IMG/VR virus record: IMGVR_UViG_3300022217_000231
Coordinates: 1,779 to 65,778 of that record
DNA from: a virus
Direction: 5' to 3' (one strand)
DNA length: 64,000 nt
Made by a program: the position numbers and the translations under genes. The notes beneath the pieces were generated by a model. That model saw only the letters and a list, made by a program, of their open reading frames with translations. It did not search any database and had not been told where the DNA came from. Positions 4,281-63,956 of the stretch are shown piece by piece (within the stretch, counting starts at the first letter, position 1; each line of letters starts with the position of its first letter).

Positions 4281-4726
4281 TTAATTCCCATTAATTTGAA
4301 TAGATACTTTCTAACGTCCGTGCCATCTTCTAATTTATTAACTATAGTTTCAGGAACTATAACTCCCAAATAAATTTGATTTCTTGATGATCCTAATGTA
4401 CAATCAATAACTTTATTATTTTCAATATTCCAAGCATGTAGGGAGAAATTTATAAATTTCTCCCCTATAAGCAATCTTTCTACTACTTTCTTATCAAAAA
4501 CTACTCCAACAGATAATTTTATATTAGGGTTTTCTTTAGCTTTTTTTAAAGAATTAAGATAACATAATTGATCTATAGTTCCCTTTACTGATCCCTTTAT
4601 TTTATCAAATAATTGAAAATTTTTAGGTATAGGATACGATCCATAATTCTTATAAACTACATTCCATTTATCTATAATTTCTTTAGCAGTGAATTTATTT
4701 TCTAATAAATATTTTTTAAATCTCAA
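4277..4726 (-). CDS. Hypothetical protein with MRFKKYLLE leader; possible papain/transglutaminase-like Cys-His-Asp fold
   Basis: LCYLNS...HAWN...VIDCT spacing of a C-H-D triad. Confidence 0.45.
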   Translation of the reverse strand: MRFKKYLLENKFTAKEIIDKWNVVYKNYGSYPIPKNFQLFDKIKGSVKGTIDQLCYLNSLKKAKENPNIKLSVGVVFDKKVVERLLIGEKFINFSLHAWNIENNKVIDCTLGSSRNQIYLGVIVPETIVNKLEDGTDVRKYLFKLMGIK

Positions 4727-5226
4727 ACGTATATTACCTCAACTAAATTTTTTAATTTAACAGGACTTTTAGTATGTACTTCTGTTAAAGCATAATATTG
4801 AAAATCATTTTTATTTCCATTAATAGCTACCCAATTATCATATAAAGTTCTTTCTTTATTTAATAAATTTTCTTTTCTTTGGCCGCTAGGAATAAAATTT
4901 TTAGTAGAACTAAATTTAAAAACTAATACCACTCTTTTTCCTAATTTATCTGGATTTGGTCTTTTTTGTTTTTCAAAATTATACTCTCCTCCCATAAAGG
5001 AATATCCTTTGGCTGTATATGGATCAGGTGTTAAAAATACCTTACCATGTACTCCTAAATGATCAAATGCGACAGTTGGTTTTAGAGCTTTATCTTGTTT
5101 TATGCTATCAAATATTTTTTCTCTAGTACCATGAAATAAATATATAGGCTTATCTTCCCACCATCCAACATGGTTATATTTTTTAAGTGCTCCTGATGCT
5201 TCTTCTAAATATTCTTTAAATCTCAT
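4723..5226 (-). CDS. Putative ADP-ribosyltransferase-fold protein with MRFKEYLEE leader
   Basis: YLFHGT...I...G/K.L.P...G.VFLTPDP..A..Y...VVL.F...TEV pattern typical of HGT-type ART domains. Confidence 0.5.
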   Translation of the reverse strand: MRFKEYLEEASGALKKYNHVGWWEDKPIYLFHGTREKIFDSIKQDKALKPTVAFDHLGVHGKVFLTPDPYTAKGYSFMGGEYNFEKQKRPNPDKLGKRVVLVFKFSSTKNFIPSGQRKENLLNKERTLYDNWVAINGNKNDFQYYALTEVHTKSPVKLKNLVEVIYV

Positions 5227-5233
5227 ATATTTT

Positions 5234-5986
5234 TTATCCTACCATAAATCCCAATGGGCTAGCATATTTTTCTATTAATTCTTCATCTAATTTTTCTTTA
5301 TCTAATTTCCCTTCTTCTAAATACATGCTAGCATTTAAAGTAGAACCGTCAGGTAACGGAGTTCCTTCATATTTACCATATATTAATCCTAATGAAATTT
5401 TAGATAATGCTAAAACATATTGTTTAATCCATATTTCATTATATAAAGGAGAAGAACCTGTTCCAGGATCATATTCAGTATATATTTCTAAAACTCCAGA
5501 GTGATTTTCTGCAGGTATAGGAGTAACAGTTAAAGTATTACCATATTTATTATATTGAAGAAAAAATGAAACTGTTAATAAATTTCTAGACATTTCTACA
5601 TATTGCATACCTAATTCATATGTTGTTAACCCAGAATAACCACCTGTATCCCAAAGTAAATTATCAAAAGCACCCTGATTATATAAAATATTCATACTAG
5701 AAAATGGAGTATTAATTCCTCCAGAAGCAGTATCAGATTCAAAATTACTAACACATTTAGTTCCCGATGGTAAATTATAAGTATCAATTCCAGCTGATAA
5801 AGTTAATACATAAGCACTAGAATAGATAACATCCTCACTATATTCTGAAAACTTTTGTATGGCGGTGTCAATGTGTTGCTCTATCGCTGAATCGCTAAGC
5901 TCCACATTAACGGTATTCCCGCCTATTTCACGATATATCCAATTTACTAATTGAAGCTTAGTTGTTACATTACCAGATACTGCCAT
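5234..5986 (-). CDS. gp13: Neck protein (T4 gp13-like)
   Basis: L...I.R.IGG..VNVEL....I...ID.A...F.EY; W.K.Y.LA..K...G....KY....LP.G..LN.......EG..D...L.EEL......P.GF..G. Confidence 0.9.
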   Translation of the reverse strand: MAVSGNVTTKLQLVNWIYREIGGNTVNVELSDSAIEQHIDTAIQKFSEYSEDVIYSSAYVLTLSAGIDTYNLPSGTKCVSNFESDTASGGINTPFSSMNILYNQGAFDNLLWDTGGYSGLTTYELGMQYVEMSRNLLTVSFFLQYNKYGNTLTVTPIPAENHSGVLEIYTEYDPGTGSSPLYNEIWIKQYVLALSKISLGLIYGKYEGTPLPDGSTLNASMYLEEGKLDKEKLDEELIEKYASPLGFMVG

Positions 5987-43532: not shown

Positions 43533-44421
43533 AAATATATTCATCTGGACAGAAATAATTAATGTAGGTAAAATTGGTAAAATTGCATTAGAATCATTTA
43601 GAAAATATCATCCAAATTTACATGTTTTTATTTATGGAAAATGGGATGACTTTGAATGGATAGATCCTCTAGAATTAGATAATGCAACATATGTAGCTTT
43701 AGGTTCTGATAATGATATAGTTCAATCATTTAATAAAGGTCATGAGGGGACAGCTAAATTATGGGCTAAATTAATTCAAGAAAGACCTGAAAAATATATG
43801 ATTCATTTTGATAGTGATATTATATTTAGAGGTGATGTAGTTCAAGATATTATAACTAGAATTGAAGAAGGATATGATTTAATAGGAGCAGTTCGTAATT
43901 ATAAAAATAATTTATGCCATAATGATGATGTTAGACATTTACAAGATGTTTGTGCTACTGGATGTTTTGCTTTTAATAGAGAATTAATTTCTAATTTTGA
44001 TTATAATACATTAACTAGTATGTGTCAAGGAATACATAATCCTTTAGGTCACCCTGTTATGGATTTCTTTGATCCTGTTATGTTCGATATTCTAAAGAAT
44101 GGTGGCAAAATATCATTCTTAGATTTTGATGATGTAGGTGGATGTAATAATCAAGGTTCTAGAAATAATAAATATTCTGAACTCAACAATATGAATGCTG
44201 CCTTTAAAATTGAATTTGGCGAGAAAATGTCTCACTTTAGTGCTGTTGGATCTGGAATGAATTTTTTTCATAATTCAGAAAAAATAAGAAATGTTCCAAG
44301 TAGTTATAGAGATTATGCCATAGATAGGTATGCATTATTTTGTAAAATATTTTATAATGAAGATATTGGTATAGATGTTAGTCAATATAATAGTTTATTC
44401 AATGGCATTGAATGGTATTAA
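43525..44421 (+). CDS. GT-A fold nucleotide-diphospho-sugar transferase-like protein
   Basis: Y.IHFDSDI.F DxD motif; located in glycan cluster. Confidence 0.6.
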   Translation: MNKNIFIWTEIINVGKIGKIALESFRKYHPNLHVFIYGKWDDFEWIDPLELDNATYVALGSDNDIVQSFNKGHEGTAKLWAKLIQERPEKYMIHFDSDIIFRGDVVQDIITRIEEGYDLIGAVRNYKNNLCHNDDVRHLQDVCATGCFAFNRELISNFDYNTLTSMCQGIHNPLGHPVMDFFDPVMFDILKNGGKISFLDFDDVGGCNNQGSRNNKYSELNNMNAAFKIEFGEKMSHFSAVGSGMNFFHNSEKIRNVPSSYRDYAIDRYALFCKIFYNEDIGIDVSQYNSLFNGIEWY

Positions 44422-46426: not shown

Positions 46427-47239
46427 ATGAATAATAACTTATCAGGACTTAGTGCCATCCACATCGAACTCACTTCTCGTTGTAACAAAAACTGTCACAT
46501 GTGTGGTAGAAGAAAAGTAGAAAAAACTCTACCAGATTTAGCTGACTATTCTAGCGATATAACACTTAACCTTCTAAAAAAAATATCTAGGCAATTACCA
46601 CATAATATTTTAGTTATTCTACATTGGAACGGAGAGCCAACCTTGTATCCTAGACTAAGATCATCTTTAAGATTGTTCAATAATCAAATTACTACTTTTA
46701 ATACAAATGGAAAATTACTTTTAGCTAAATCGGATGACATTATAAATAATTTAGATACATTAGTACTTTCTACTTTTGAAGATGATCCTGAATGGGAAAG
46801 TCAATTCAAAGTATTTCAAAAGTTCTTATATAAAAAAGGTAATAAAAAGCCTAATACTATTATCAGATGTTTAGGAAATATATCTGAAGAAAGAATGGAG
46901 TTATATAAAAGTACTGGTTCTATTATAGCTAAACGTATATTACACTCTCCTATGGGAAGCTTTAAGTATACTAATGAACCAACTATTCCCGAAGCTGGTA
47001 TTTGTTTAGATTTTTTAAATAGAGTAGCTATTAATACAAAAGGTGAAGTATCACAATGTGTCAGATTCGATTCTAATAGAGCTGGTATTATAGGTGATAT
47101 TAATATACAATCTTTAAGTGAAATATGGAATGGAGAAATAAGAATGAATTATTTAGACAAACATATTAGAGGAAAGCGTAACGAAATTCCATTATGTAAA
47201 GAATGTGAGTTTTGGGGCGTTCCTAGAGGAGGAGATTAA
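46427..47239 (+). CDS. Radical SAM / SPASM-domain protein
   Basis: IELTSRCNKNCHMC; GEP.LY; TNG.LL; C-terminal C.....I...G.V..C...G....SL.EIW...C..C; late promoter at 46381. Confidence 0.88.
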   Translation: MNNNLSGLSAIHIELTSRCNKNCHMCGRRKVEKTLPDLADYSSDITLNLLKKISRQLPHNILVILHWNGEPTLYPRLRSSLRLFNNQITTFNTNGKLLLAKSDDIINNLDTLVLSTFEDDPEWESQFKVFQKFLYKKGNKKPNTIIRCLGNISEERMELYKSTGSIIAKRILHSPMGSFKYTNEPTIPEAGICLDFLNRVAINTKGEVSQCVRFDSNRAGIIGDINIQSLSEIWNGEIRMNYLDKHIRGKRNEIPLCKECEFWGVPRGGD

Positions 47240-47603
47240 AATGGATAAATTTACACCAAATACTTTTGTTAAGAAAGGATGGGGTAGTGAGCTTTGGATA
47301 GTTAACAATGAATTATATTGTGGAAAAGTTCTTTCTTTTAGTATAGGTAAAAAATGTTCATGGCATTATCATAAATTAAAGGATGAAACTTTCTATATTT
47401 CTCATGGTAGCTTTTCTATTAAATACTCATATGAAGATGATATAGAAAAAGCAGATAAGATTATATTAAGTATTGGACAAAAATTTCATGTTCCCGTTGG
47501 ATTAAGACATCAAATGAAAGCTTTAGATCCTAATTCAGAAATAATAGAATTTTCTACAAAACATCATGATTCAGATAGTTATAGAATAATAAAAGGAGAT
47601 TAA
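47205..47603 (+). CDS. Cupin-fold sugar isomerase-like protein
   Basis: V.KGWG.ELW......YCGK.L......SWHYH..KDETF. Confidence 0.8.
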   Translation: MSFGAFLEEEIKMDKFTPNTFVKKGWGSELWIVNNELYCGKVLSFSIGKKCSWHYHKLKDETFYISHGSFSIKYSYEDDIEKADKIILSIGQKFHVPVGLRHQMKALDPNSEIIEFSTKHHDSDSYRIIKGD

Positions 47604-47605
47604 TA

Positions 47606-48004
47606 ATGAAAGTATTTTTAGGTGGCACATGTAATGATAGTAAATGGAGAGAAAAATTAATTTCTAAATTAGAAATAGATTATTTTAATCCAGTAGTAGA
47701 CAATTGGACAGAAGAATGTCAGGCAGAAGAAATTAAACAAAGAGGAGAATGTGATTATTGTTTGTATGTTATTACTCCTAAAATGACAGGAGTGTATTCT
47801 ATCGCTGAAGTTATTGATGATAGTAATAAGAGACCTAATAAAACAATATTTTGTTTTCTAAACCAAGATGATGATTTGATTTTTGCTCCTAACCAAATCA
47901 AATCTTTAGAAAATATAGGTAAAATGGTACAAAGAAATGGAGGAATTTGGCTATCTAATTTAGAGTCAGTTGCTGTTAATTTGAATTTTAAGAAAGGGTT
48001 ATAG
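47606..48004 (+). CDS. Nucleoside 2-deoxyribosyltransferase-like protein
   Basis: KVFLGGTC..S.WR..L...L...YFNPVV..W; E..YSIAE..D.S...P. Confidence 0.8.
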   Translation: MKVFLGGTCNDSKWREKLISKLEIDYFNPVVDNWTEECQAEEIKQRGECDYCLYVITPKMTGVYSIAEVIDDSNKRPNKTIFCFLNQDDDLIFAPNQIKSLENIGKMVQRNGGIWLSNLESVAVNLNFKKGL

Positions 48005-48008
48005 ACTA

Positions 48009-48926
48009 ATGAAAGTATTAGTAACGGGAGGGTCAGGATTTTTAGGAAAAGCTTTACAAAAAATTAGGCCAGAGTGGATATATTTATCATCTAAAGATTG
48101 TGATCTTAGAGAAAAAAGTTGGGTATTTAGCACTTTATCTGAAATAGCTCCTGATGCAATCGTACATTTAGCAGGTAGAGTTGGTGGAATTAAAGAAAAT
48201 TCTAAAAACCAAGCTGACTTTTATTATGATAATATATCAGTGAATACTAATGTTATTCATTGTGCACATATAATGGGAATAAATAGAATATTATCTGCTT
48301 TAAGTACATGTGCTTTTCCTGATGTTGTTAATAAATATCCATTTACTGAAAAAGACATTTTAAATGGTCCTCCTGCTTTTACTAATTTATCTTATGGATT
48401 TACTAAGCGTAGTCTTTATGCAATGTCTAATGCGTATAGAAGACAATATGGTCGAAATTATTCTTGTTTTTGTCCTAGCAATATATATGGCCCAAATGAT
48501 AATTTTGATTTAGAAAGTAGTCACTTTGTTCCAGCAATGATTAGAAAATTTATAGAAGCTAAAGATGGAGATACTATAGAATTTTGGGGAACTGGGGAAC
48601 CTTTAAGACAACAATTATATGTTGAAGATTTAGCATTTTTTATACCAACTTTATTAAAGCATCATAATAGTAATATTCCAATGATTGTAGTTCCCGATGA
48701 AAATTTAAGCATACGAAAGATGGTAGAAATATGTAAAGATCTTATAGGAAAAAATGTTAAATATTTTTTTAATAACTCTTTAGATGGGCAATATAGAAAA
48801 GATGGAGATAATTCTATGTTTATGAATTTAATTCATGAGCATTTACATACTAGAGAATTATTGCCATTTAAAAAAGGGTTAGAAGAAACGATTAAATGGT
48901 ATAAGAAAAATGGACATATTAGATAA
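48009..48926 (+). CDS. fcl: GDP-L-fucose synthase
   Basis: VTGGSGFLG; HLAG.VGGI..N; STC.FP; YG..KR; P.N.YGP.DNF....SH..PA.I.K; WG.G...R. Confidence 0.92.
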   Translation: MKVLVTGGSGFLGKALQKIRPEWIYLSSKDCDLREKSWVFSTLSEIAPDAIVHLAGRVGGIKENSKNQADFYYDNISVNTNVIHCAHIMGINRILSALSTCAFPDVVNKYPFTEKDILNGPPAFTNLSYGFTKRSLYAMSNAYRRQYGRNYSCFCPSNIYGPNDNFDLESSHFVPAMIRKFIEAKDGDTIEFWGTGEPLRQQLYVEDLAFFIPTLLKHHNSNIPMIVVPDENLSIRKMVEICKDLIGKNVKYFFNNSLDGQYRKDGDNSMFMNLIHEHLHTRELLPFKKGLEETIKWYKKNGHIR

Positions 48927-49218
48927 AATAAATGATATTCTAATATTAGAAGAAAAATGTGAATATGTAGTATTAGTATATTTTGAAGGTAAAATAATAC
49001 ACGCTATAGGATATCATAATAAACCAAATAAGGAAACTTATAAGCAATTAAGACAAGAATTTAGAGAAGATAAATCACATGGGTTATATAACATAGTTGA
49101 ACATATAGGATTTATACCTTCCAATAAACTAATTCCTCCTTTAACTATAAAAGAAATATCTAATAAAATGGACGAAATTAATAAAGAATTAGAAAATATA
49201 GATAAGGAAAATAAATGA
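48910..49218 (+). CDS. Leader-family small protein (MDILDKINDILILEE)
   Basis: Same leader as 9329 and 12296, about 37 kb away. Confidence 0.55.
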   Translation: MDILDKINDILILEEKCEYVVLVYFEGKIIHAIGYHNKPNKETYKQLRQEFREDKSHGLYNIVEHIGFIPSNKLIPPLTIKEISNKMDEINKELENIDKENK

Positions 49219-49226
49219 GCAAAACT

Positions 49227-49622
49227 TTATTTATCTTTAAATTTTTGTCTATATTCTTCTAATATGGATTCAAAGTTTCCCACATAATACTCATTTCTAT
49301 CTTCACATGATTGTAGATGATAATCATATTGACCACATTTTTTACAAGGTATAAGACGATCATCAAATCTTGCTTTAAGCTGCCATAATATGCACCGTGG
49401 CTTACTTGTTATTAAATGACCTATAGCATATAATTTTACTCTTTCTACTTTAGGATATAATTCAAAAAGTTCTAAACATCTTTTAGAAAATAGTCTTAAT
49501 AATTGTTCTTTAGTAAAATGAATAGGCACTTCTAGATTTTCTCTTCGTTGATCAAATCTTATTTCATATGTGGCTAATTTTAACTTTTTCATATCATTTA
49601 ATATTGCATTAGGGCTACCCAT
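49227..49622 (-). CDS. Early-cassette hypothetical protein
   Basis: 131 aa, C..C near C-terminus. Confidence 0.5.
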   Translation of the reverse strand: MGSPNAILNDMKKLKLATYEIRFDQRRENLEVPIHFTKEQLLRLFSKRCLELFELYPKVERVKLYAIGHLITSKPRCILWQLKARFDDRLIPCKKCGQYDYHLQSCEDRNEYYVGNFESILEEYRQKFKDK

Positions 49623-49627
49623 AATAA

Positions 49628-50152
49628 TTATCCTTTTAATCTATTTATTTTTATTATCCATGATGCAACCTCTTTAGTATTTCCTTCTTCTTTCTTTATT
49701 TCTAGGAATTCTTTAATGTATCTTTTTATTGTATTAGAGTGTAAAAATTCATAAATAGCTTTTGCAAATGGAACCGGTTGAATTAATTCATCTTCGAGTA
49801 ACCATTTAGAATTAAAGCAACATCCATATTTTTCAATAAACATTTGCCAAAATAATTGTTTTTGTGCCCAAGTCTTTAATATCCCAAATCCTTCCCATTG
49901 CGTTAAATCTATGTCACTTCTATTTGGATAGATTTTAGGTTCTTTTCCATCAATGGCATCTTGAGTTATTTCTTTAAAATCTTTACATTTATTACATTTA
50001 AAAAATAGTGAGTATTCTCCCATTTCAGGAACTAATCCAGGTAAAGTGAAATCAGATGAATCATAATCAAATACCCATTTGTGCCAACATTCACCTAAAC
50101 ATTCTATTAAAAATTGTTGCTCTTTTTTTGTCAATTTTATTTTCATTTGCAA
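49628..50152 (-). CDS. Early-cassette hypothetical protein
   Basis: 174-aa ORF. Confidence 0.5.
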   Translation of the reverse strand: MQMKIKLTKKEQQFLIECLGECWHKWVFDYDSSDFTLPGLVPEMGEYSLFFKCNKCKDFKEITQDAIDGKEPKIYPNRSDIDLTQWEGFGILKTWAQKQLFWQMFIEKYGCCFNSKWLLEDELIQPVPFAKAIYEFLHSNTIKRYIKEFLEIKKEEGNTKEVASWIIKINRLKG

Positions 50153-50471
50153 TCTCTTTTTTTATTTTTATGATAGAGAGGGCAACCTGCACTACGTTTC
50201 AATTTAGGATTCGAACCCAAATCTCTCTATCTGCTAGCCTTTTTAAAAAATTTCCATTTATGTCTTGTCCAATCTACTTGTAATCCACAATTTCTACGAT
50301 GTAAATCATGCCACCATTCATGTGCGGCATTTCCTGTTAATTCTCTACTAATTCCATCATCAAATTCTAGCAACACTTTAACCATTTTATTTGGTTCTTT
50401 TTCAAAAATTTCTTCAACCCAATTACGTTGTTTAAATATTGAAATAAATTTATTATAAAAATAAGAAATCA

Positions 50472-50768
50472 TTATATTTTTCCTTTCGTTAATGACCACC
50501 ATTTAATTCCATCGAGATAATATTTATCGCTGCTGTTATCTACAACAATAGTTAAAGTTTTACTTCCTATTTTCTGCACTTTATGTTCATAATCCAAAAA
50601 TGCAGTTTCTCCCTTTATATCTTTTATATATCCTCTTACATATAAATTAGGAGTTATATCAAAAAGATCTTTATATGCTTTTATTTTTCTTTTAATCTCT
50701 TTGATGGTAGGTTCACCTTCAAATGTTAAATCAATTGGATTCATATTTATTTCTCCTTTTAATTGCAA
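50472..50768 (-). CDS. Early-cassette hypothetical protein
   Basis: 98-aa ORF; AGGAG upstream of internal ATG. Confidence 0.45.
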   Translation of the reverse strand: MQLKGEINMNPIDLTFEGEPTIKEIKRKIKAYKDLFDITPNLYVRGYIKDIKGETAFLDYEHKVQKIGSKTLTIVVDNSSDKYYLDGIKWWSLTKGKI

Positions 50769-50773
50769 TCTTT

Positions 50774-51364
50774 TTAAGTGTCAAAATTAGCAAAAGAATA
50801 AAAACTTTTTATCAAATCATTATCAAATAGAATGGCACAAATAATACCTGTTCTAAAATTTTCAGATTGAACTATAACATTTCCACTTGGTCCTATTCCA
50901 GGGCTATCAATTACACCTACTAACTCAAAACCATCGTAAATTGTTTCTGCTATATAAGGAGCAGATCCCCATAAATCCCAGGATTTATTTTTAAGAAAAA
51001 CAAACATATCATCAATAGAATAAAAATGTTCAATCTGCAATTTCATATTATTCAATTCTTCTAAGGTTTTATTATAAGGAGGATTTGAATAATCAATCAT
51101 CATATCACTTAAAAATTTTAATTGAATTTCAAAAAACTTTCTCAAATAATTAAAATTATAATTACATCCCAATATTTCTAATGTTTCTTGTTGATCTAAA
51201 TCCTTTCTTATTTCAAAAAATAATTCAAAAATAGCTAATGCAGAAGAATATTGGCAACTACCCCACTCATTTACATCGAAATTAAATTTAAAATCATTAG
51301 GCCATCCATATTCTTTTTCTAATTTAATTTTCCATTCATCTTTATTCATTATGTTCCCACCCAT
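50774..51364 (-). CDS. Early-cassette hypothetical protein
   Basis: 196-aa ORF. Confidence 0.5.
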   Translation of the reverse strand: MGGNIMNKDEWKIKLEKEYGWPNDFKFNFDVNEWGSCQYSSALAIFELFFEIRKDLDQQETLEILGCNYNFNYLRKFFEIQLKFLSDMMIDYSNPPYNKTLEELNNMKLQIEHFYSIDDMFVFLKNKSWDLWGSAPYIAETIYDGFELVGVIDSPGIGPSGNVIVQSENFRTGIICAILFDNDLIKSFYSFANFDT

Positions 51365-51497
51365 CAGCTTTTAACCGCTTGTCACTCTCGGTTGCTTTGT
51401 TCAGACTTAATACTTTAAATGTATATTTTTTTCTATATATAAATACCATACACTCCATTTTCAATCTCCTTTTAGCCTTTATTTAATTTATACTATA

Positions 51498-51526
51498 ATT
51501 ATATTATATCACAACCTAAATGTCAA
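51498..51526 (-). promoter_or_regulatory. sigma70 early promoter module (copy 5)
   Basis: Perfect TTGACA-17-TATAAT. Confidence 0.85.
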
Positions 51527-51581
51527 GTAAATAATTATTTTTACTATCATTATAAATAATTAAAAATTAAGGATAATAGAA

Positions 51582-52565
51582 ATGAATCAAAAAGTTGCAT
51601 TTATCACAGGGATCACTGGACAGGATGGTAGTCATTTAACTGATCTATTACTAGAAAAAAATTATAAAGTAATTGGTATGGTTAGGAGAAATTCTGTTCC
51701 TGAAAATCAAACATATAGAATAAATCATGTAATGAATAATTCTAATTTGATTTTAGAATATGGTGATTTGGAAGATATTACCTCTATTATACGTATTTTA
51801 AATACATATCAACCAAATGAAATATATCACTTAGGGGCACAATCGCATGTTGGTATATCATTCAAAACACCAATTTATACTAGCAATGTAGTAGCTATAG
51901 GAACCGTGAATTTATTAGAAGCTATTCGAATAGCCTGCCCAGATACTAAAATGTACAACGCTGGTTCCAGTGAAATGTTTGGGAATTCAATTGATTCTGA
52001 TGGATTTCAAAGAGAAACTACCCCAATGCACCCTGTTAGTCCATATGGTTGTGCTAAGACCTTTGCCTATAACATATGTAGAAACTATAGAAATAGCTAT
52101 GGTTTATTTATTTCTACAGGAATTTTATTTAATCACGAGGGAGTTAGGAGAGGAATTAATTTTGTAACAGGTAAAGTCGCTAGAGATGCTGTTAGAATTA
52201 AGAAAGGAATTATTGAAAGTCTTCCTATGGGTAATTTAAATGCTGCTAGAGATTGGAGTAGCTCTAAAGATTTCGTTAAAGTAATGTGGGAAATTTTACA
52301 GTTAAATGAAGCTGATGATTTTGTATGTGCATCAGGTATTTCACATACTGTTGAAGATTTATTAAAATATACATTTAATTTATTAGATTTAGATTATAAA
52401 GATTATGTTACTATAGAAGAAAAATATTTAAGACCCGAAGAATTAAATGTACTTAAAGGAGATTGTTCTAAACTTAAAAAAGCTATTCCTCATTGGAAGC
52501 CTGAATATACATTTGAATCTATGATGAAAGAAATGGTTAATCACTGGATGAAATATTATGAATAA
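51582..52565 (+). CDS. gmd: GDP-mannose 4,6-dehydratase
   Basis: AFITGITGQDGS.L..LLLEK.Y.V.G..RR; EIYHLGAQSHV..SF; P..P.SPY..AK; GILFNHE..RR...FVT; GNL.A.RDW; late promoter at 51551. Confidence 0.96.
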   Translation: MNQKVAFITGITGQDGSHLTDLLLEKNYKVIGMVRRNSVPENQTYRINHVMNNSNLILEYGDLEDITSIIRILNTYQPNEIYHLGAQSHVGISFKTPIYTSNVVAIGTVNLLEAIRIACPDTKMYNAGSSEMFGNSIDSDGFQRETTPMHPVSPYGCAKTFAYNICRNYRNSYGLFISTGILFNHEGVRRGINFVTGKVARDAVRIKKGIIESLPMGNLNAARDWSSSKDFVKVMWEILQLNEADDFVCASGISHTVEDLLKYTFNLLDLDYKDYVTIEEKYLRPEELNVLKGDCSKLKKAIPHWKPEYTFESMMKEMVNHWMKYYE

Positions 52566-54851: not shown

Positions 54852-55166
54852 TCACCATACATCCTTAACTTCTTCTATAGAATCTATTTCTATATCATCT
54901 GCACAACATATGTCAGGTATATCTACTCTTTTTTCAATAACATTATCTGCGACATCCCAGGCATCATTTTCATTATATGCATCTACATAAAAATAATGAT
55001 TATTCATAGTAATCACATTAACTTTATATTTAACTAATTCACCATTTAATCCAGCCTCTTCTCTTATTGCTTTTTCTTCTTCAATATTTCGAAGTCTTTT
55101 TAATTCTATAATTTGTTCACTATTGCCAAATTCTAATTTTTTACCACATAGAAGATTTTCAGGCAT
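54852..55166 (-). CDS. Hypothetical protein
   Basis: 104-aa ORF directly downstream of the radical SAM C-half. Confidence 0.5.
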   Translation of the reverse strand: MPENLLCGKKLEFGNSEQIIELKRLRNIEEEKAIREEAGLNGELVKYKVNVITMNNHYFYVDAYNENDAWDVADNVIEKRVDIPDICCADDIEIDSIEEVKDVW

Positions 55167-55167
55167 A

Positions 55168-55956
55168 TTAACCTATAATCCTTTCTTCATCACTAAAACT
55201 AGACTTATATACTTTCATATCTTTAAGGTCTAAATAAGCGGAAAGAATTTCTGGTTCATAAAGAGAAATATCTAATTTTTTATTTCCTTTTAAATATGGA
55301 TGAAAATTGGCGCCAAAAGCTACTTGTTTAGTATCTAATTTTTCAACTTCAGATATTATATGTAGCGCTACTGAATCTAAATCATACATTAGTCCTTTAG
55401 CTCTACCTTGGGGCAATAAAGGTAAAAGAACAAAATATTCTATATCTTTATGATATAATTGATATAAAGCCTTAAACCTCTCAACATCTTGTTTAAAACT
55501 TAGTAATATATGAAAATTTGTTCTTACTCCATTTTCTATACAATCTTTAGTAGCATTTGTCCATTCATTTATTAAATGATTATGACAAGTAATAGCTACT
55601 CCACCACAATATTTTTTAGTAGCTTCAATAATTTCTTTTGTCATACCTATACCGTTAGTAGTATAATTTGGAGTAATTCCAAGATCATAAAAAGTTTTTA
55701 AAATTTCAATAAAATCTGGATGTTCATTTGGATTACCACCACCAATAGCTACTTGAAATGGTCGCTGATTTTCTGTCATTGGGCCATAGAAATTGTTTAT
55801 CTTTTCTATTACATTAGGATAATGCTCTTCTTGAATAGAGTTTTGGTAGCAGTTATGTACTAAAATATTGTTAGCAAAATAATTATGATAGTTTTTAATA
55901 CCTAAATTATATACAAATCCTTTATGTTTTCTTTTTGATATTTTTTTTATTTTCAT
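55168..55956 (-). CDS. Split-intein C-fragment (35 aa) fused to radical SAM C-extein
   Basis: True start ATG 55956 with GAGGGAG RBS; MKIKKISKRKHKGFVYNLGIKNYHNYFANNILVHN|CYQNS...QVAIGGGNPNEHPDF...NYTTNG. Confidence 0.9.
   Translation of the reverse strand: MKIKKISKRKHKGFVYNLGIKNYHNYFANNILVHNCYQNSIQEEHYPNVIEKINNFYGPMTENQRPFQVAIGGGNPNEHPDFIEILKTFYDLGITPNYTTNGIGMTKEIIEATKKYCGGVAITCHNHLINEWTNATKDCIENGVRTNFHILLSFKQDVERFKALYQLYHKDIEYFVLLPLLPQGRAKGLMYDLDSVALHIISEVEKLDTKQVAFGANFHPYLKGNKKLDISLYEPEILSAYLDLKDMKVYKSSFSDEERIIG
55852..55956 (-). mobile_element. Intein C-terminal splicing fragment (IntC)
   Basis: Block F VYNL.I...HNYFAN and block G ILVHN followed by +1 Cys. Confidence 0.9.
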
Positions 55957-56884
55957 AACATACTCCCTCTTTATAGTGACGGTGTTTATCAATTTTACCA
56001 TGACATGATGCACAGTAAGTGATTCCTATTTGTAAATTATCAAAATGATAATTTCTTATTCTGTGACATATTAATTCAAATTCTTTACTTTCAATATCTA
56101 TATCCTTTATAGATTTCCATATATTTAATTTTTGTAAGAAATTTTTAATAATATCTCTTAAAGGTTCTATATGATGTACTTCTAGCCTACCTCCTCTAAT
56201 ACTACATAATTGACAAGTATAATCATCCCTTTTTAAAATTTCTATATTCCAGCCAGCTAATCTATATCTTACAATGCCTCCTGCTCTCCCTCCACCTTTC
56301 CATCTAGGATTATCTTTACCAAATCTTTTCTTTATAGTACCAGTAACATAACCTCTTTTAATAGTTTCACTCATTTTTTTAACAGTTTCGGGATTTTTCA
56401 TAGGATTTTTATCCCCGGTCATTCGAATAGATTGTAAATGAGAAAGTTCCTCTTTAGTCATAGGAACTTTTGTTAAATTAGGTCCTCCTTTCCAATTTGG
56501 GTTTTTATCTCCTATTTTACTCTTAGATCGCAAATCACTACTTTTTGATTTACAATCTTCACATATATTTCCTTCTAATGTTCCAGTAGGAGATATATGG
56601 GTGATATTTTTTTCTACTTTTCCAGTGGGTTTCTTGCAATTCCGACAAAGAACTGTAATTTCTATTTTTTCTAGTTTTACATTTTTTCTCTTACATAAGT
56701 TACAATGAGTCCTATTTTGAGTTCCTATAAATGTTTCTTTACAATTTATACAGATTTTTTCATTTATTTTCTTTTTATAACGCTGTTTACCTAATGTTTT
56801 ATGGCATTCTTTATTAGAACAACATCGCGATCTTTTATCTCTGTTTTCATATTCTTCTTGACATATAACACATTTCTTTATCAT
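55922..56884 (-). CDS. Free-standing HNH homing endonuclease
   Basis: Zn-ribbon CxxC repeats, G.KNP.WKGG NUMOD-like repeats, RD.YTCQLC...G..LEVHHI...C..CH..ID. Confidence 0.88.
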   Translation of the reverse strand: MIKKCVICQEEYENRDKRSRCCSNKECHKTLGKQRYKKKINEKICINCKETFIGTQNRTHCNLCKRKNVKLEKIEITVLCRNCKKPTGKVEKNITHISPTGTLEGNICEDCKSKSSDLRSKSKIGDKNPNWKGGPNLTKVPMTKEELSHLQSIRMTGDKNPMKNPETVKKMSETIKRGYVTGTIKKRFGKDNPRWKGGGRAGGIVRYRLAGWNIEILKRDDYTCQLCSIRGGRLEVHHIEPLRDIIKNFLQKLNIWKSIKDIDIESKEFELICHRIRNYHFDNLQIGITYCASCHGKIDKHRHYKEGVCYENKKNIKKKT

Positions 56885-56932
56885 AATATATAATCCTTTG
56901 AGTTCCTTTATATAAGTATTTATATATTATGA
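56881..56932 (-). promoter_or_regulatory. Late promoter embedded in a start-codon-sequestering hairpin for the HNH gene
   Basis: 12-bp inverted repeat TCATAATATATA/TATATATTATGA covers the ATG; TATAAATA at 56917-56924 overlaps the 5' arm. Confidence 0.7.
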
Positions 56933-56992
56933 TTTTTACTTTGTATATGTTAAATTTTAATTTACTCCTTTATATAAAAAAATTTTATTATT

Positions 56993-57283
56993 TTATATAT
57001 CTAAGAAATAAATATCATCTATTTCTTTTATTTTGTCTGCTCTAATCCATCCTCTATTAAATGTAAATATCTTATGATTAGGAGTTATTTCTAAAATTTC
57101 GCCATTTTCTAATTCTATAATTATCAATTCTCCTGAATACTCTCTTTTATGTATTTGTTCTACCTCATTAGTCATAACTTCCAAATTTTTCGCATTTACA
57201 TTTAAAACTGTATCACCTACTACTATATCCTTTATTTTCTTTTTACCATCTATAGTAGAAATTAGACTATTTTCATTTAAACA
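56993..57283 (-). mobile_element. Intein N-terminal splicing fragment (IntN, 96 aa)
   Basis: Block A CLNENSLIST.DG.K.IKDI.VGD.V; block B EITPNHKIF; ends at a stop with no block F/G. Confidence 0.9.
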
Positions 57284-57454
57284 ATAATTACAAGCCCCGG
57301 AACAATAATTAGTAATTTTGACGTCATAAAATTCTGGATATTTTAATTCAACAATTGGTTTAGAACTATCATAGTACATTCTGATTGTCTTAAAATTATG
57401 ATAAACACTTCTATAATTTTCTTCTGGAAAACTTCTAGTTTTAATCATTTTCAA
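56993..57454 (-). CDS. Radical SAM N-extein fused to split-intein N-fragment
   Basis: YPEFYDVKITNYCSGACNY|CLNEN...; first two Cys of CxxxCxxC precede the intein. Confidence 0.9.
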   Translation of the reverse strand: MKMIKTRSFPEENYRSVYHNFKTIRMYYDSSKPIVELKYPEFYDVKITNYCSGACNYCLNENSLISTIDGKKKIKDIVVGDTVLNVNAKNLEVMTNEVEQIHKREYSGELIIIELENGEILEITPNHKIFTFNRGWIRADKIKEIDDIYFLDI

Positions 57455-57472: not shown

Positions 57473-57931
57473 TTAACAACTAATTTCTGTATTCACAAAA
57501 ACATCATTTAATCTACTTATTATATTCTTTCCTTCAAGTCCATCAGACTTAATTTTGATAGATATATCCTTTTGAAATCCTAACCCATCATTAACACTTT
57601 CATTTATATAATTAAATTCTTCTTCAGTAAGATCTTTAATAGGTATTTCATAATTTCCATGACATCTACCACAATTTCCTAGTTCATCTTCTTCTGTTTT
57701 AGTGATATCATATTCACAACAAGGACACCAAGCAGTTTCTTCTTCATTATATATAAATTCTATATCAAATATTTCATCTACCGTTTTATTAGAACCGGCT
57801 GCTTTTAACACACTAGTCAGTATTTCAGTCATAATATCTTTAGCATTATTACTTACACTTGCAAATATCTCTGTACTTGAATTAGTAATAACATCTATAT
57901 ATGAATGGAACGGAATTCTTATTTCTTTCAT
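57473..57931 (-). CDS. IDVITNSSTE-motif protein (paralogue 3, CxxC pairs)
   Basis: MKEIRIPFHSYIDVITNSSTEIF; CPCC and CGRC. Confidence 0.7.
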   Translation of the reverse strand: MKEIRIPFHSYIDVITNSSTEIFASVSNNAKDIMTEILTSVLKAAGSNKTVDEIFDIEFIYNEEETAWCPCCEYDITKTEEDELGNCGRCHGNYEIPIKDLTEEEFNYINESVNDGLGFQKDISIKIKSDGLEGKNIISRLNDVFVNTEISC

Positions 57932-57941
57932 TTTTCTCCTT

Positions 57942-58337
57942 TTAACCTAAATGATATCTTCGACAATTTGTAAAAAGATCTGCTATAGCCTCTTGTAATT
58001 CATAAGGTATAGAATTATCATCTGTACCTTCAATTAGTATATAATTTTTCTTTTTATTAGGAATGTTTAATCCCCACCCCTTATATTCTTTTAAAATGTC
58101 TTTTCCTAACATTGTTCTTATAGTTAAAATATTTTGTATTTTAACATGATCATCTAGGCCATGATAATGGTTATTTTCAGATCTATTGTATATACTCTTT
58201 AAATCTTTTAAGGTTTCTTTCAAAATATCAAATACCATTTTCTCTGATTTATCAGTATCACTTACAAATAATTCAGTAGAACTATTGGTAATTACATCAA
58301 TAAAACTATGCGTTTCTAATAAAAATAAATTTTTCAT
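57942..58337 (-). CDS. IDVITNSSTE-motif protein (paralogue 2)
   Basis: HSFIDVITNSSTELF; DDNSIPY. Confidence 0.7.
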   Translation of the reverse strand: MKNLFLLETHSFIDVITNSSTELFVSDTDKSEKMVFDILKETLKDLKSIYNRSENNHYHGLDDHVKIQNILTIRTMLGKDILKEYKGWGLNIPNKKKNYILIEGTDDNSIPYELQEAIADLFTNCRRYHLG

Positions 58338-58361
58338 TTTAACAATCTCCTATTTATTTTG

Positions 58362-58826
58362 TTAATAATTGTTTATGCCTTCCATTTCAAAAAGATTAAA
58401 AATACGACTAATTATGTTACTATATTCTTTCTCTTCTTTTTCAGTTAGATTCTTTGGTTTAATAATAAGTTCTCTTTCAAGCCCATATTCACAGTTATAA
58501 TAACTGTAGTATCTATCTGCCTCTTCTTCTGTAGGATTAATAGTACCATAACTTGCTTCAGTTCCACATCTAGGACATGGTTTACCTTCTTCTCTTACTA
58601 GATCTTCAGATTCCCCTCCACATACATAACAATCTTTCTCTTCATATTGAAGAGTAATATCAAAAATCTCTTCAACTTTTTTATCACCACCACCTAAAGT
58701 AATAATTTCCTGTAAAATATCTCTTATACCTTCAACTGAATTACTTGCAGCACTAACAAATATTTCAGTTGAACTATTTGTTATTACATCTATCGTACTA
58801 TGTATTGGAATTCTTATTTCTTTCAT
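58362..58826 (-). CDS. IDVITNSSTE-motif protein (paralogue 1, CxxC pairs); real start ATG 58826
   Basis: MKEIRIPIHSTIDVITNSSTEIF; CYVC and CPRC; AAGAGGG RBS; the track's upstream extension spans the promoter. Confidence 0.7.
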   Translation of the reverse strand: MKEIRIPIHSTIDVITNSSTEIFVSAASNSVEGIRDILQEIITLGGGDKKVEEIFDITLQYEEKDCYVCGGESEDLVREEGKPCPRCGTEASYGTINPTEEEADRYYSYYNCEYGLERELIIKPKNLTEKEEKEYSNIISRIFNLFEMEGINNY

Positions 58827-58854
58827 TATTAAGCCCTCTTTAATTTTTAATTTT

Positions 58855-58883
58855 ATTATATAATAATATATGAATAATGTCAA
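58855..58883 (-). promoter_or_regulatory. Perfect sigma70 promoter for the TNSSTE / radical SAM operon
   Basis: TTGACA-17-TATAAT. Confidence 0.8.
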
Positions 58884-60948: not shown

Positions 60949-61545
60949 TTAAGTTATATATTCAGAATTTATAATATTGATATCTTTAGGTGTAATATCT
61001 CCATCTAATCCAAATACTATATCAGCTTCATCTTTATTTTCAACTATATCACCTCTAGAAACAGCATGAGTCATAAATAAATCATAAAGTATAGGTTTAT
61101 TATTTAAAGATGTAACAGCTTTAAGAATTTGCTTAATAGAAGCTCTATTAGATTCTACATTATTACAACTTCTACCCCAACCTCTATAATGCCAACTTTT
61201 AGGAACTCCCTTTGTAGCCAAATCTACCCAAATGGCTTCTCTAGTTTTTAAATCAAAAATTACAGGTATAGCATTTCTAGAAGCTGTTTGTAAATCTAAT
61301 TTAGAAATTACTGTTTTTGGGTCGTAAATTTCATTGCTTTGTGGTTTATTTCTATGTCCAGATGAAGTTGAATTAGTTCTAATTTCAACTTGGTCTACTT
61401 TGTGAATACCTAATACAAAATCTTTAGGTGGGATAAAAACTCCCACTTCATCTCTATCTGAATTAGGCCCAGCTAATCCATACATATGAGAGCCAGTAAT
61501 AGTTTTAAATATCATATTATTTTTAGCAATTTCTTCTAAATCCAT
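60949..61545 (-). CDS. Chimeric ORF: truncated Pol-beta-type nucleotidyltransferase N-terminus joined to the C-terminal part of a TerD-associated-type protein
   Basis: GSHMYGL....SD.D..GVF, then PQSNEIYDPKTV..K.DL......IPVIFDL...EAIW.DL...NNVE.N...KP.LYDLF..HA..RG. Confidence 0.55.
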   Translation of the reverse strand: MDLEEIAKNNMIFKTITGSHMYGLAGPNSDRDEVGVFIPPKDFVLGIHKVDQVEIRTNSTSSGHRNKPQSNEIYDPKTVISKLDLQTASRNAIPVIFDLKTREAIWVDLATKGVPKSWHYRGWGRSCNNVESNRASIKQILKAVTSLNNKPILYDLFMTHAVSRGDIVENKDEADIVFGLDGDITPKDINIINSEYIT

Positions 61546-61554
61546 TTCACTCTC

Positions 61555-61947
61555 CTAAATAATTTCTAGATGTTCTAATGCTAATTTTAAAAATTCTATA
61601 GATGGTTTCTTTTTAAAATTTAAAAGTTGATTTATTCCCATCCAACCAATATATCCACCATTACAATAGAAAGCCTTTGTTACATCTAAAATACTTAATT
61701 TATATGCGGAATCATGATCATATAAATTATTCCAATGTTCTTTAATTTCTATCCAAAAATTATTCTTTTGATATCTATTAAAAGAAGCTCCCTTATTATT
61801 TTTTATTTTTTCTTCAGTCCAGCTATGTATAGGAGTATGCCCTAGTCCCATTTCTTTAATTTTTTCTTTATCAAAAACATCTCCCTGTAAATGGATAAAC
61901 CCATTATCTAATAAAAAGTTTGGTATTTCTGTATCATATGTTAACAC
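61555..61947 (-). CDS. Hypothetical protein
   Basis: GGAGATTGAA RBS. Confidence 0.5.
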   Translation of the reverse strand: MLTYDTEIPNFLLDNGFIHLQGDVFDKEKIKEMGLGHTPIHSWTEEKIKNNKGASFNRYQKNNFWIEIKEHWNNLYDHDSAYKLSILDVTKAFYCNGGYIGWMGINQLLNFKKKPSIEFLKLALEHLEII

Positions 61948-62501
61948 TTCAATCTCCTATTGTCAATCATATTCCAATTATCTGGTTTACTTTCCATTAT
62001 TTTTATAATTTCATCTATATGATAAGGATAATAACTATTTGTATTTACTCCAACATCCAATATTTTACCAGTCATATCATAACTATCTTTTAAACTTCCA
62101 TGTTCATGCCCATGACAATGAAAACTACCATAATGAGATTTTTCCCAAGCATACATTGGATAATGAGAAAGTACAATAGTTTGGTTTCTAATTTTAATAT
62201 TTTTAATTTCACTTATTGAACAAAATAAACTCTTTAAGAAACTAAAGCTTTGTCTATCATGATTTCCTCTAATTAAATGCCATTGACCGTTTAGTTTTTT
62301 TCTAATATTTTCCCATTCTTTAGTTCCACCAAAACAAAAATCCCCAGTAGAATAAACTATATCCTTAGAATTAACAATTTCATTATGTCTTTCTATCATG
62401 ATGTCATTCATTTCTTCAACAGATGAAAACGGTCTATTATCATACTTCATAATATTTTTGTGACTAAAATGGTGATCACCACAAATAAATATTTCACTCA
62501 T
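61941..62501 (-). CDS. Calcineurin-like metallophosphoesterase
   Basis: GDHHF.H.NI...D.RPF; .GDF; LIRGNHD; LSHYP; HGH.HG; DVGV. Confidence 0.9.
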   Translation of the reverse strand: MSEIFICGDHHFSHKNIMKYDNRPFSSVEEMNDIMIERHNEIVNSKDIVYSTGDFCFGGTKEWENIRKKLNGQWHLIRGNHDRQSFSFLKSLFCSISEIKNIKIRNQTIVLSHYPMYAWEKSHYGSFHCHGHEHGSLKDSYDMTGKILDVGVNTNSYYPYHIDEIIKIMESKPDNWNMIDNRRLKC

Positions 62502-63187: not shown

Positions 63188-63489
63188 GAAATAATTTTTA
63201 ATTTTAATTTTTTACTTTCTAAATACTTTAATGGGTCACGAACATTATCTGTCTCAAGAATTATTCGAACTTCATCTGTTGCTTGTATAGTAAACATATC
63301 ATCATATGTGATAAATATATCTTTATTATATCTTTTAGCTATATCAAAAAATAATTTACAATCATTAAAACCTATATCACCATCGCCATCACAATAACTT
63401 TTAATTCCATTGTTTTCCATTTCCAATATTAATTTTCTAGCCTTTAAAATCTTATTTAATTTATTAATAGCCATAATATATAATCTCAC
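63184..63489 (-). CDS. Hypothetical protein
   Basis: 101-aa ORF. Confidence 0.45.
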   Translation of the reverse strand: MRLYIMAINKLNKILKARKLILEMENNGIKSYCDGDGDIGFNDCKLFFDIAKRYNKDIFITYDDMFTIQATDEVRIILETDNVRDPLKYLESKKLKLKIIS

Positions 63490-63956
63490 TTTCCTCTATT
63501 TATTAAAATATTTTTAGCAATATCGCTAGCTTCTTTTCCTTCATATTGGCAAGGATAAGAATCTTTAAGAATTTTCATAACTTTTCCCATATCTTTCACT
63601 GAACAAAAAGTTTTATCTTTAATAATATTGTGAATAACTTCTTTAAGTGAATCTCCTGTTAATTGAATAGGCATATAATATTCTAATAATTTTTTCTCTA
63701 CTATAAACTGTAATCGAGATTTAGTTAAAAAATATTTAGAATCTATATTATCTATAATATTTAAAGTATCATTGATACCCTTTAAAAAAGATTTAATTAC
63801 ATTAAGAACTTCAATATCTGTAGATTCCCTATTACTATCATTTTTACCAATCATAGAAGCTTCACTATATAAAGTAGCTAAAAAAGTAGCCTTAGTAACC
63901 TGATTTTCTTTTCTAGCTTTTATCATATCATTTCTAATTTCTTCTAAAAGAGTCAT
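63486..63956 (-). CDS. GatB/YqeY domain protein
   Basis: L.E.I..D...A.K......A..L..L.S; E.V..VI.S..K; E...LE.Y.P.QL....L; KDMGKVM..LK....QY.G..AS. Confidence 0.85.
   Translation of the reverse strand: MTLLEEIRNDMIKARKENQVTKATFLATLYSEASMIGKNDSNRESTDIEVLNVIKSFLKGINDTLNIIDNIDSKYFLTKSRLQFIVEKKLLEYYMPIQLTGDSLKEVIHNIIKDKTFCSVKDMGKVMKILKDSYPCQYEGKEASDIAKNILINRGK

Follow-up and report, generated by a model that had tools for sequence, protein, structure and literature searches.

A candidate phage-specific maturation module: a compact radical SAM enzyme encoded together with small acidic proteins that share an invariant N-terminal motif

Introduction

Why would three otherwise diverged viral proteins, encoded in tandem, retain one short N-terminal segment essentially unchanged, and why would their genes lead into a gene for a radical S-adenosylmethionine (SAM) enzyme? 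These questions are raised by a locus in IMG/VR virus record IMGVR_UViG_3300022217_000231, of which positions 1,779 to 65,778 were analyzed (64,000 nucleotides; hereafter, the window, with coordinates counted from its first letter). On the minus strand between positions 57473 and 58826, three open reading frames (ORFs) encode proteins containing the block H-S-x-I-D-V-I-T-N-S-S-T-E-(I/L)-F (hereafter, the motif) and are followed by a radical SAM gene split by an intein. The original prediction, made from the DNA letters, suggested a functional role for the motif in connection with the radical SAM enzyme and took the locus for a candidate uncharacterized enzyme system, a view now supported by gene linkage and by the predicted structure of a complex. 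The reading favored here, to which a probability of roughly 0.55 is assigned, is that the motif proteins are substrates of the radical SAM enzyme, being modified in the T-N-S-S loop.

Radical SAM maturases that act on peptides or proteins dedicated to them have been fertile ground for new chemistry and for cofactors derived from proteins. To our knowledge, almost all such maturases characterized so far are bacterial, with those acting on peptides carrying auxiliary clusters. The module considered here is abundant, with thousands of sequence clusters and 220 radical SAM loci in IMG/VR. The substrate hypothesis is a clear and testable one, involving a 12-residue invariant loop and a 280-residue enzyme, and working out the chemistry could bring to light an unknown modification as well as a novel class of early effectors in phages.

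Results

Motif genes and the radical SAM gene occur together

The association of the motif genes with the radical SAM gene was considered from both directions. A set anchored on the motif proteins comprised 19 viral loci, distributed over 17 contigs. In 13 of these contigs, the motif gene array is followed directly downstream by a gene for a close homologue (1e-46 to 1e-75) of the window radical SAM enzyme, while the four contigs without such a gene are fragments estimated to be 12-26% complete. In a second set, anchored on the enzyme and comprising the best 80 loci of 220 viral stretches encoding a relative, 79 loci carry between one and six motif genes, which share the strand of the radical SAM gene and in most cases directly precede it, although now and then they directly follow it. 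Motif genes are thus not found mostly apart from the enzyme, whichever partner serves as anchor. All-against-all clustering of the ORFs from these 80 loci revealed two conserved families, namely, the radical SAM enzyme, present in all 80, and the motif proteins, which account for 195 ORFs in 79 loci. The family ranking third was found in only 17 of the 80 loci, such that there is no third conserved gene, and the same clustering detected no protease or exporter conserved near the two partners.

Cassettes usually hold two to four motif paralogues of distinct subtypes. Nonetheless, a single motif gene was found in 23 of 95 loci, a count that includes some loci fetched twice, and one genome that is 72% complete contains exactly one motif gene together with the radical SAM gene. 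As such, the minimal unit is one motif protein and the enzyme.

The sole enzyme-anchored locus without a motif gene (L060, positions 4199-5849) presents a PP-loop ATPase-like gene, with an SGGKAS motif, directly upstream of the radical SAM homologue. Given that this contig is 180 kb long, a motif gene may lie elsewhere on it.

The motif is kept while the remainder of the protein diverges

Alignment of the three window proteins revealed 32-39% identity overall, together with the identical block at residues 9-23 (residues 10-24 in the 131-residue copy). The ORFs and the alignment hence bear out the original description of three tandem paralogues sharing HSxIDVITNSSTE(I/L)F. The same is true of the claim that two of the three contain inserted CxxC pairs, since the 154- and 152-residue copies each present two such pairs within an insertion missing from the 131-residue copy. 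At the DNA level, the codons of the motif differ at synonymous sites among the three copies, with the 152-residue copy showing AGT/TCA switches of serine codon class at all three serine positions of the motif. It is therefore selection at the protein level, as opposed to gene conversion, that has preserved the identity of the motif.

A family profile built from six sequences, namely, the three window proteins and three motif proteins from a second contig, L001, was run exhaustively against 1.84 billion representatives. This yielded 2086 cluster representatives at E<=1e-3, of which 819 were at E<=1e-10. Invariance was scored on 151 listed representatives, corresponding to 150 of the best-scoring hits and one seed sequence. 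T-N-S-S and the serine six residues upstream are present in all 151, as is a threonine or serine directly after T-N-S-S, while the motif histidine is found in 150 and the aspartate in 143. Across a 117-sequence alignment of the family, mean column identity is 21%. The extreme C-terminus is also conserved, reading hydrophobic-F/L-x-S...E-A...G. Family members comprise 110-190 residues and are uniformly acidic, with a median isoelectric point (pI) of 4.45.

In a quick tree of the family, the window's 131-residue copy belongs to a subtype termed HLG, members of which end in R-(Y/W/F)-H-L-G, and pairs with the HLG copy of another phage (Shimodaira-Hasegawa-like approximate likelihood ratio test, SH-aLRT, 93). 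A second clade, xYS, is well supported (SH-aLRT 98), and a mixed group holds the other two window copies, each with a different nearest neighbor. The existence of such old subtypes indicates that the paralogues are ancient, and not the outcome of recent tandem duplication.

Two further features of the family were noted. Among 143 dereplicated members, drawn from the window and from loci L001-L104, 71 have glycine as their last residue, lying behind the conserved tail, a frequency far above that expected for this position; this glycine may matter for modification or for a later step. In addition, a 332-residue protein encoded on one 8-kb contig (P0010) is a natural fusion of two family members, presenting a complete HSxxDVITNSS at residues 7 and 169, with its second half being of the HLG type.

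A predicted complex places the motif in the enzyme active site

An AlphaFold2 model of the 152-residue copy, generated from a 117-row alignment, has a mean predicted local distance difference test score (pLDDT) of 74 and contains a confidently modeled beta-alpha-beta...alpha-beta-alpha core. The invariant segment (residues 9-25) and the CxxC insertion were modeled as low-confidence coil. That a segment is invariant and yet predicted to be unstructured is typical of a part that becomes ordered on a partner.

Multimer structure prediction, offered with the original prediction as a way to examine the motif, was performed on the intein-free radical SAM enzyme native to locus L004 and the adjacent motif protein (P0077), together with SAM and a 4Fe-4S cluster. 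The interaction prediction score from aligned errors (ipSAE) was 0.66, 0.66, and 0.64, whereas the best of three controls scored 0.00. Of 80 solved complexes, 58 attain the mark set for the tool, as do 2 of 110 mismatched pairs, a calibration that holds only roughly for these runs. Contacts agreed by at least 56% between runs, and the pLDDT of the partner was at least 65.

On the partner side, the predicted interface comprises residues 8-32, spanning the whole motif, residues 35-43 of the first helix, and residues 160-162 of the conserved C-terminal tail. On the enzyme side, it includes residues 20-32 of the N-terminal sheet, among them the invariant K27, T28, and R30, as well as the C-terminal ends of the barrel strands (residues 95-97, 124-126, 145-148, 172-176, 200-205, 233-243, and 253-266). 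The residue pairs of lowest error place partner residues 10-15 (I-H-S-F-V-D) alongside residues 26-32 of the radical SAM enzyme, with an expected error of 1-2 A. In the model, the motif is predicted to sit in the active-site funnel, and we infer that the I-T-N-S-S-T loop makes the contacts with the barrel. Both conserved parts of the family, namely, the motif and the C-terminal tail, are thus predicted to touch the enzyme, which would explain their conservation.

The enzyme is a compact, single-cluster radical SAM protein

Intact homologues of the enzyme comprise some 280-310 residues, contain a single cluster site and match PF04055 at 2.2e-11, above the cut-off. The enzyme shows the features of the radical SAM superfamily, as the sequence CSGACNY|C is restored across the intein in the window copy and the model is that of a barrel. 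Residues invariant among homologues include C56, C60, and C63, the sequences GGGEP and PNYTTNG, an HPH pair, and several asparagine, histidine, tyrosine, and arginine residues. No match to the SPASM domain and no invariant cysteine outside the CxxxCxxC motif were detected among these homologues.

Sequence searches offered only marginal matches to named radical SAM proteins, these being TYW1 (1e-4), PqqE (4.5e-3), and the pyruvate formate-lyase (PFL) activase (E 0.27). Likewise, NCBIfam models of maturases scored 14-20 bits against cut-offs of 265-650, and the NCBIfam viperin model (NF038283) scored 18.8 bits against a cut-off of 180. In the AlphaFold2 model of the enzyme (pLDDT 84.7; predicted template modeling score 0.85), the barrel is preceded by an N-terminal sheet of three strands, and the nearest solved structures are the peptide maturases SuiB (2.8e-10, the best match being to a peptide-bound entry) and SkfB (1e-8). 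Further neighbors are BlsE, viperin, CteB, MoaA, and the anaerobic sulfatase-maturating enzyme (anSME; 4k38; 1.9e-5).

Klebsiella phage Matisse and Vibrio phage D479 also encode distant relatives of the enzyme (approximately 24% identity). These correspond to a longer SPASM-type enzyme, lie among genes without annotation and were uninformative.

Discussion

The motif proteins as proposed substrates

In the mechanism proposed here, a phage-specific two-component module would comprise a compact, single-cluster radical SAM enzyme and one to several small, acidic alpha+beta paralogues serving as its substrates. Each substrate would present a flexible N-terminal segment, the H-S-x-x-D part of which would add as a beta-strand to the small N-terminal sheet of the enzyme, much as do the leaders of peptides that are made by the ribosome and modified after translation (RiPPs). 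The I-T-N-S-S-T loop would then enter the barrel beside SAM and the [4Fe-4S] cluster, where the 5'-deoxyadenosyl radical would abstract hydrogen from a threonine, asparagine, or serine residue, leading to post-translational modification. In the window, the enzyme would be active only once its two halves had been trans-spliced.

As to the chemistry, our guess is that a serine or threonine is oxidized or dehydrated to a carbonyl or dehydro residue that would serve as a cofactor or warhead derived from the protein. With low confidence, we would also guess at dehydration of the viperin type, at a rearrangement that is redox-neutral, or at installation of a radical. The acidity of the proteins, their restriction to phages and the presence of several diverged paralogues would fit effectors of host takeover or counter-defense. 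A bolder and distinctly more tentative proposal is that the enzyme, without an auxiliary cluster, installs an unprecedented modification on the Thr-Asn-Ser-Ser loop, be it a radical-generated carbonyl or dehydro residue, an altered backbone, or a radical that is stable. It would thereby activate a phage-only family of small acidic early proteins, which as effectors or enzymes would help the phage to take over its host or to counter host defenses. Were this so, the module would represent a new, virus-specific class of protein maturation system.

Several considerations weigh against the motif proteins being substrates. Binding is a model prediction, whereas modification of the motif, as opposed to mere attachment, is what we infer. 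The complex was modeled on a homologous pair from a related phage and not on the split enzyme of the window, and the custom alignments and ligands used in that run are what loosen the calibration of the tool. The invariance figures rest on the best-scoring profile matches, which are partly selected for the motif itself. Viperin and BlsE, both radical SAM enzymes acting on small molecules, are nearly as close to the enzyme model as are the peptide maturases (1e-7 to 1e-6; template modeling score of about 0.6). Finally, the absence of an auxiliary cluster and of further conserved cysteines argues against the known forms of anSME-type oxidation, of thioether or ether crosslinking and of cysteine-dependent epimerization, which are the chemistries best known for serine, threonine, or asparagine targets.

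Comparison with known systems

The SuiB/SuiA (streptide), CteB/CteA, and SkfB maturase systems offer the first comparison, with SuiB and SkfB being the closest structural neighbors of the phage enzyme. In these RiPP maturase systems, the enzyme gene lies just downstream of one or more tandemly arranged substrate genes, and the motif genes are arranged in the same way. These maturases bind their precursors by beta-strand addition; in the phage system, the pairing of the conserved recognition segment with the N-terminal sheet, like the entry of the adjacent residues into the barrel, is a predicted one. The differences are nonetheless considerable. The SPASM/twitch maturases SuiB, CteB, SkfB, PqqE, and MftC contain an auxiliary [4Fe-4S] domain, whereas the phage enzyme, with its three invariant cysteines, does not. 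The precursors of these maturases are short leader-core peptides, whereas the phage partners are folded proteins of 110-190 residues with the conserved segment at the extreme N-terminus. A protease or exporter is usually encoded near such maturases, yet neither is conserved at the phage loci. Moreover, unlike RiPP maturases, the phage module is essentially confined to phages. A radical SAM maturase encoded together with its substrates is in itself a known kind of system; what would be new here are the absence of an auxiliary cluster, folded full-length substrates with a target at the extreme N-terminus, the lack of an accompanying protease or exporter, and the restriction to phages.

Much as proposed here, anSME is a single radical SAM enzyme that acts on several full-length paralogues, the sulfatases, each of which has a serine or cysteine modified within a short, invariant stretch close to its N-terminus, and in so doing creates a protein-derived catalytic residue; as noted above, anSME is also among the structural neighbors of the phage enzyme. 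Still, anSME requires two SPASM clusters and a target motif of the form (C/S)xPxR or, more broadly, (C/S)-x-(P/A)-x-R, neither of which is present in the phage system, where the motif reads HSxxDxITNSST. PflA with PflB or GrcA, and NrdG with NrdD, resemble the phage pair in that a compact, single-cluster radical SAM enzyme receives a loop of a folded protein into its barrel. In these activase systems, however, the modified glycine lies in the RVxG[FWY] loop of a ten-stranded barrel, whereas the phage partners are small alpha+beta proteins with no glycine in the motif. As such, the suggestion in the original prediction that the motif is a target of radical SAM modification stands in part, with a RiPP-like or protein-substrate role fitting best of the options offered and a glycyl-radical-like activation lacking the glycine motif that defines it. 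The dehydratase viperin and the decarboxylase BlsE are similar to the phage enzyme in size, in having a single cluster and in structure, yet act on nucleotides or nucleoside sugars and, unlike the phage enzyme, have no dedicated partner protein.

Two systems outside this group were also considered. The internal proteins of T4-type phages, diverse as they are, have in common a capsid-targeting sequence, a short N-terminal tag that ends in a prohead-protease site (L/I-x-E), and are expressed late, beside head genes. The cassette considered here instead has a sigma-70-type promoter and is tied to a radical SAM gene and not to head genes. The HXS antiphage system is reported to be a bacterial defense in which an effector with repeated HxS units is matured by a radical SAM enzyme and acts in the periplasm (PMC13128918). 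Like the module considered here, it thus couples a radical SAM enzyme to a protein with a histidine- and serine-containing signature in the conflict between phage and bacterium; the present module differs in being phage-encoded, in having a single signature in each protein, and in showing no evident signal peptide.

Other possible roles for the motif proteins

Much of the evidence that points to the motif proteins as substrates would be equally accounted for were they interchangeable subunits of the enzyme. Here, the motif would be a common docking plug, perhaps lending histidine, aspartate, serine, or asparagine to the active site, while the variable bodies of the proteins would recruit a host protein, nucleic acid or small molecule. 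Gene linkage and predicted binding are the same under both readings. Each cassette usually holds several ancient, diverged paralogues with conserved docking surfaces and variable middles, the small-molecule enzymes viperin and BlsE are close structural neighbors, and the enzyme has no auxiliary cluster for peptide-crosslink chemistry. Such a role nevertheless appears rather unlikely. Were the active-site funnel filled by a loop of the motif protein, any other substrate would have to compete with it, and the motif genes mostly precede the enzyme gene, as precursor genes do. Furthermore, known partner proteins of radical SAM enzymes, such as RiPP recognition elements or PqqD-type chaperones, bind peptides and are not known to insert into the barrel.

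More doubtful still is that the motif serves as the assembly interface or active site of a small complex of paralogues, to which the radical SAM enzyme would be only metabolically linked, for instance by making a bound ligand. This would account for the usual presence of two to four paralogues of distinct old subtypes per cassette and for the natural fusion of two paralogues in P0010, and the invariant histidine, aspartate, asparagine, and serine residues could bind metal or phosphate. Against this, the single-copy loci described above, including that in the 72%-complete genome, the low confidence with which the motif is folded in the monomer model and the restriction of the fusion to one contig all speak. 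Because about one quarter of the cassettes hold a single copy, a hetero-oligomer interface, as had also been suggested in the original prediction, is not obligatory.

The motif proteins as substrates are also to be preferred over two readings that we consider very improbable. The first is self-cleavage at N-S-S via an N-O acyl shift, with or without help from the radical SAM enzyme, releasing a peptide of about 18 residues and a new reactive N-terminus in the manner of pyruvoyl enzymes such as PanD, which are of similar size and cleave at X-Ser behind a short N-terminal chain; although the Asn-Ser-Ser triplet is invariant, such processing needs no radical SAM enzyme, to which the linkage is almost absolute, and fold searches gave no likeness to pyruvoyl enzymes or other autoprocessing domains. 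The second is that the single-cluster enzyme, which in size and cluster content resembles PFL-activase-type enzymes, is an activase that gives the motif proteins a stable radical in their backbone, perhaps at the C-terminal glycine that ends half of the members behind a tail touching the enzyme in the model; here, the invariant motif contains no glycine and no RVxG[FWY] fingerprint is present, two of the three window copies end without glycine, the motif proteins do not have the glycyl-radical-enzyme barrel, and the match to the PFL activase is marginal.

Distribution of the family

Searches of the three window proteins against Pfam, PHROGs, and NCBIfam returned no significant match, and the 117 relatives have no Pfam or PHROG family in common, with isolated matches involving single sequences. 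One such match, that of the C-terminal half of the 163-residue protein P0123 to a sulfatase C-terminal domain (PF16347; 2e-20), was set aside, since this protein is probably an assembly or recombination chimera, the only one among the 117 members. With the monomer model of the motif protein as query, Foldseek found nothing at E<=0.001 in the PDB or AFDB clusters, the best Z-score of a wide VIA-align search was 4.9 (the N-terminal ferredoxin-like domain of Cas6), which is within noise, and a search of the ESM Atlas returned unnamed viral clusters only, weak fold searches of this kind not serving to establish a new fold.

Two members of the family, used as tblastn queries, had no match among 50,697 deposited phage records. 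Among 185,579 species genomes, three matches were obtained, all on short contigs of metagenome-assembled genomes that are probably binned phage DNA. Public sources name the members solely as hypothetical proteins, and no description of the motif-protein family was found in the literature searched for the motif strings and for phage radical SAM or RiPP systems. A word-based search with the window proteins identified one outside relative, on contig L001, which presents the same layout of three motif genes followed by a split-intein radical SAM gene, without the HNH gene of the window (see below). The module is essentially confined to uncultured, often large, phages.

Organization of the cassette in the window

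Reading along the minus strand, the cassette opens with a sigma-70-type promoter at positions 58855-58883, in which TTGACA (58878-58883) and TATAAT (58855-58860) are separated by a 17-nucleotide spacer. With 12 of 12 consensus positions matched, the perfect TTGACA-17-TATAAT element earlier reported ahead of these genes was recovered. A ribosome-binding site read from the sequence, AAAGAGG, lies between the promoter and the ATG at position 58826. It is this ATG that starts the first motif gene (58362-58826), as reflected in the 154-residue product stored in a public protein collection; the TTG at position 58883 given as the start in the ORF list overlaps the promoter and was rejected as an artifact. 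The encoded protein is acidic, contains the insertion with two CxxC pairs, and presents the motif as HSTIDVITNSSTEIF (encoded at 58758-58802). The second motif gene (57942-58337) encodes the 131-residue protein of the HLG subtype, ending in ...RYHLG, with the motif HSFIDVITNSSTELF (58266-58310). The third (57473-57931) encodes the 152-residue protein, which is likewise acidic (pI 4.3) and contains the insertion with two CxxC pairs, with the motif HSYIDVITNSSTEIF (57863-57907).

In the radical SAM gene that follows, a split intein interrupts the CxxxCxxC motif and its halves flank an HNH gene, in agreement with the split enzyme earlier described as following the motif genes. The first half (56993-57448) encodes the N-extein of some 57 residues, ending in CSGACNY, fused to the N-terminal intein part (IntN), as seen from Intein_splicing and Hint matches; translation truly begins at the ATG of MIKTR, the start also seen in homologues. 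The second half (55168-55956) encodes the C-terminal intein part (IntC) and the 227-residue C-extein, which begins with the cysteine encoded at 55849-55851, and gave Intein_splicing and Radical_SAM matches. Comparison of this C-extein with uninterrupted homologues yielded values of 1e-46 to 1e-75. The free-standing gene between the halves (55922-56884) encodes an endonuclease matching PHROG HNH families. Missing from the otherwise identical L001 cassette, this gene is a passenger of the mobile-element kind that lies outside the enzyme system.

Intergenic gaps in the cassette measure 10-25 nucleotides, and a search for a terminator detected none. The cassette hence reads as one operon that runs on into the radical SAM gene and, given its consensus sigma-70 promoter, is probably read early by the host RNA polymerase. 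A scan of the whole window for perfect TTGACA-N16-18-TATAAT sites identified three (44000-44028, 51498-51526, and 58855-58883), all on the minus strand, whereas 0.29 would be expected from shuffled sequences. These three sites probably mark early minus-strand transcription units. Among the datasets listed as containing this stretch, none was of RNA, and the sole DNA dataset containing it in full is a sediment metagenome, which may be the source sample.

Interruption of the radical SAM gene by a split intein at the same site, the third cysteine of CxxxCxxC, was seen in at least four separate contigs, namely, those corresponding to the window (55168-57448), L001 (1872-3024), L016/L073, and L017/L061. 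In the latter two, the N- and C-terminal parts are encoded by separate ORFs, and the enzyme-anchored matches span residues 63-279 only. The presence of inteins at the cluster motif in this many contigs suggests that the enzyme is important to the phage.

Neighboring genes

A 104-residue protein is encoded on the minus strand at 54852-55166, beginning two bases past the stop codon of the radical SAM gene, and is therefore probably co-translated with the enzyme. As no homologue was found in the 19 motif-anchored loci or in L001, it is considered to lie outside the conserved module. A gene for an RlaP-type nucleotidyltransferase (PF10127), a family associated with RNA repair, lies directly downstream of the radical SAM gene in 17 of the 80 enzyme-anchored loci (e.g., L049, 5851-6816). 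In the window, the RlaP-type gene (60949-61545, minus strand) is found some 2 kb upstream of the cassette, near genes for a metallophosphatase (61941-62501) and a YqeY-domain protein (63486-63956). This may reflect a loose association or merely a common early region.

Elsewhere in the window, a second, unrelated radical SAM/SPASM gene (46427-47239) was noted within a run of plus-strand genes (46427-52565). The same run contains three genes that, by eye, resemble sugar-nucleotide genes, namely, cupin-like (47205-47603), epimerase/dehydratase-like (48009-48926), and GDP-mannose-dehydratase-like (51582-52565) sequences.

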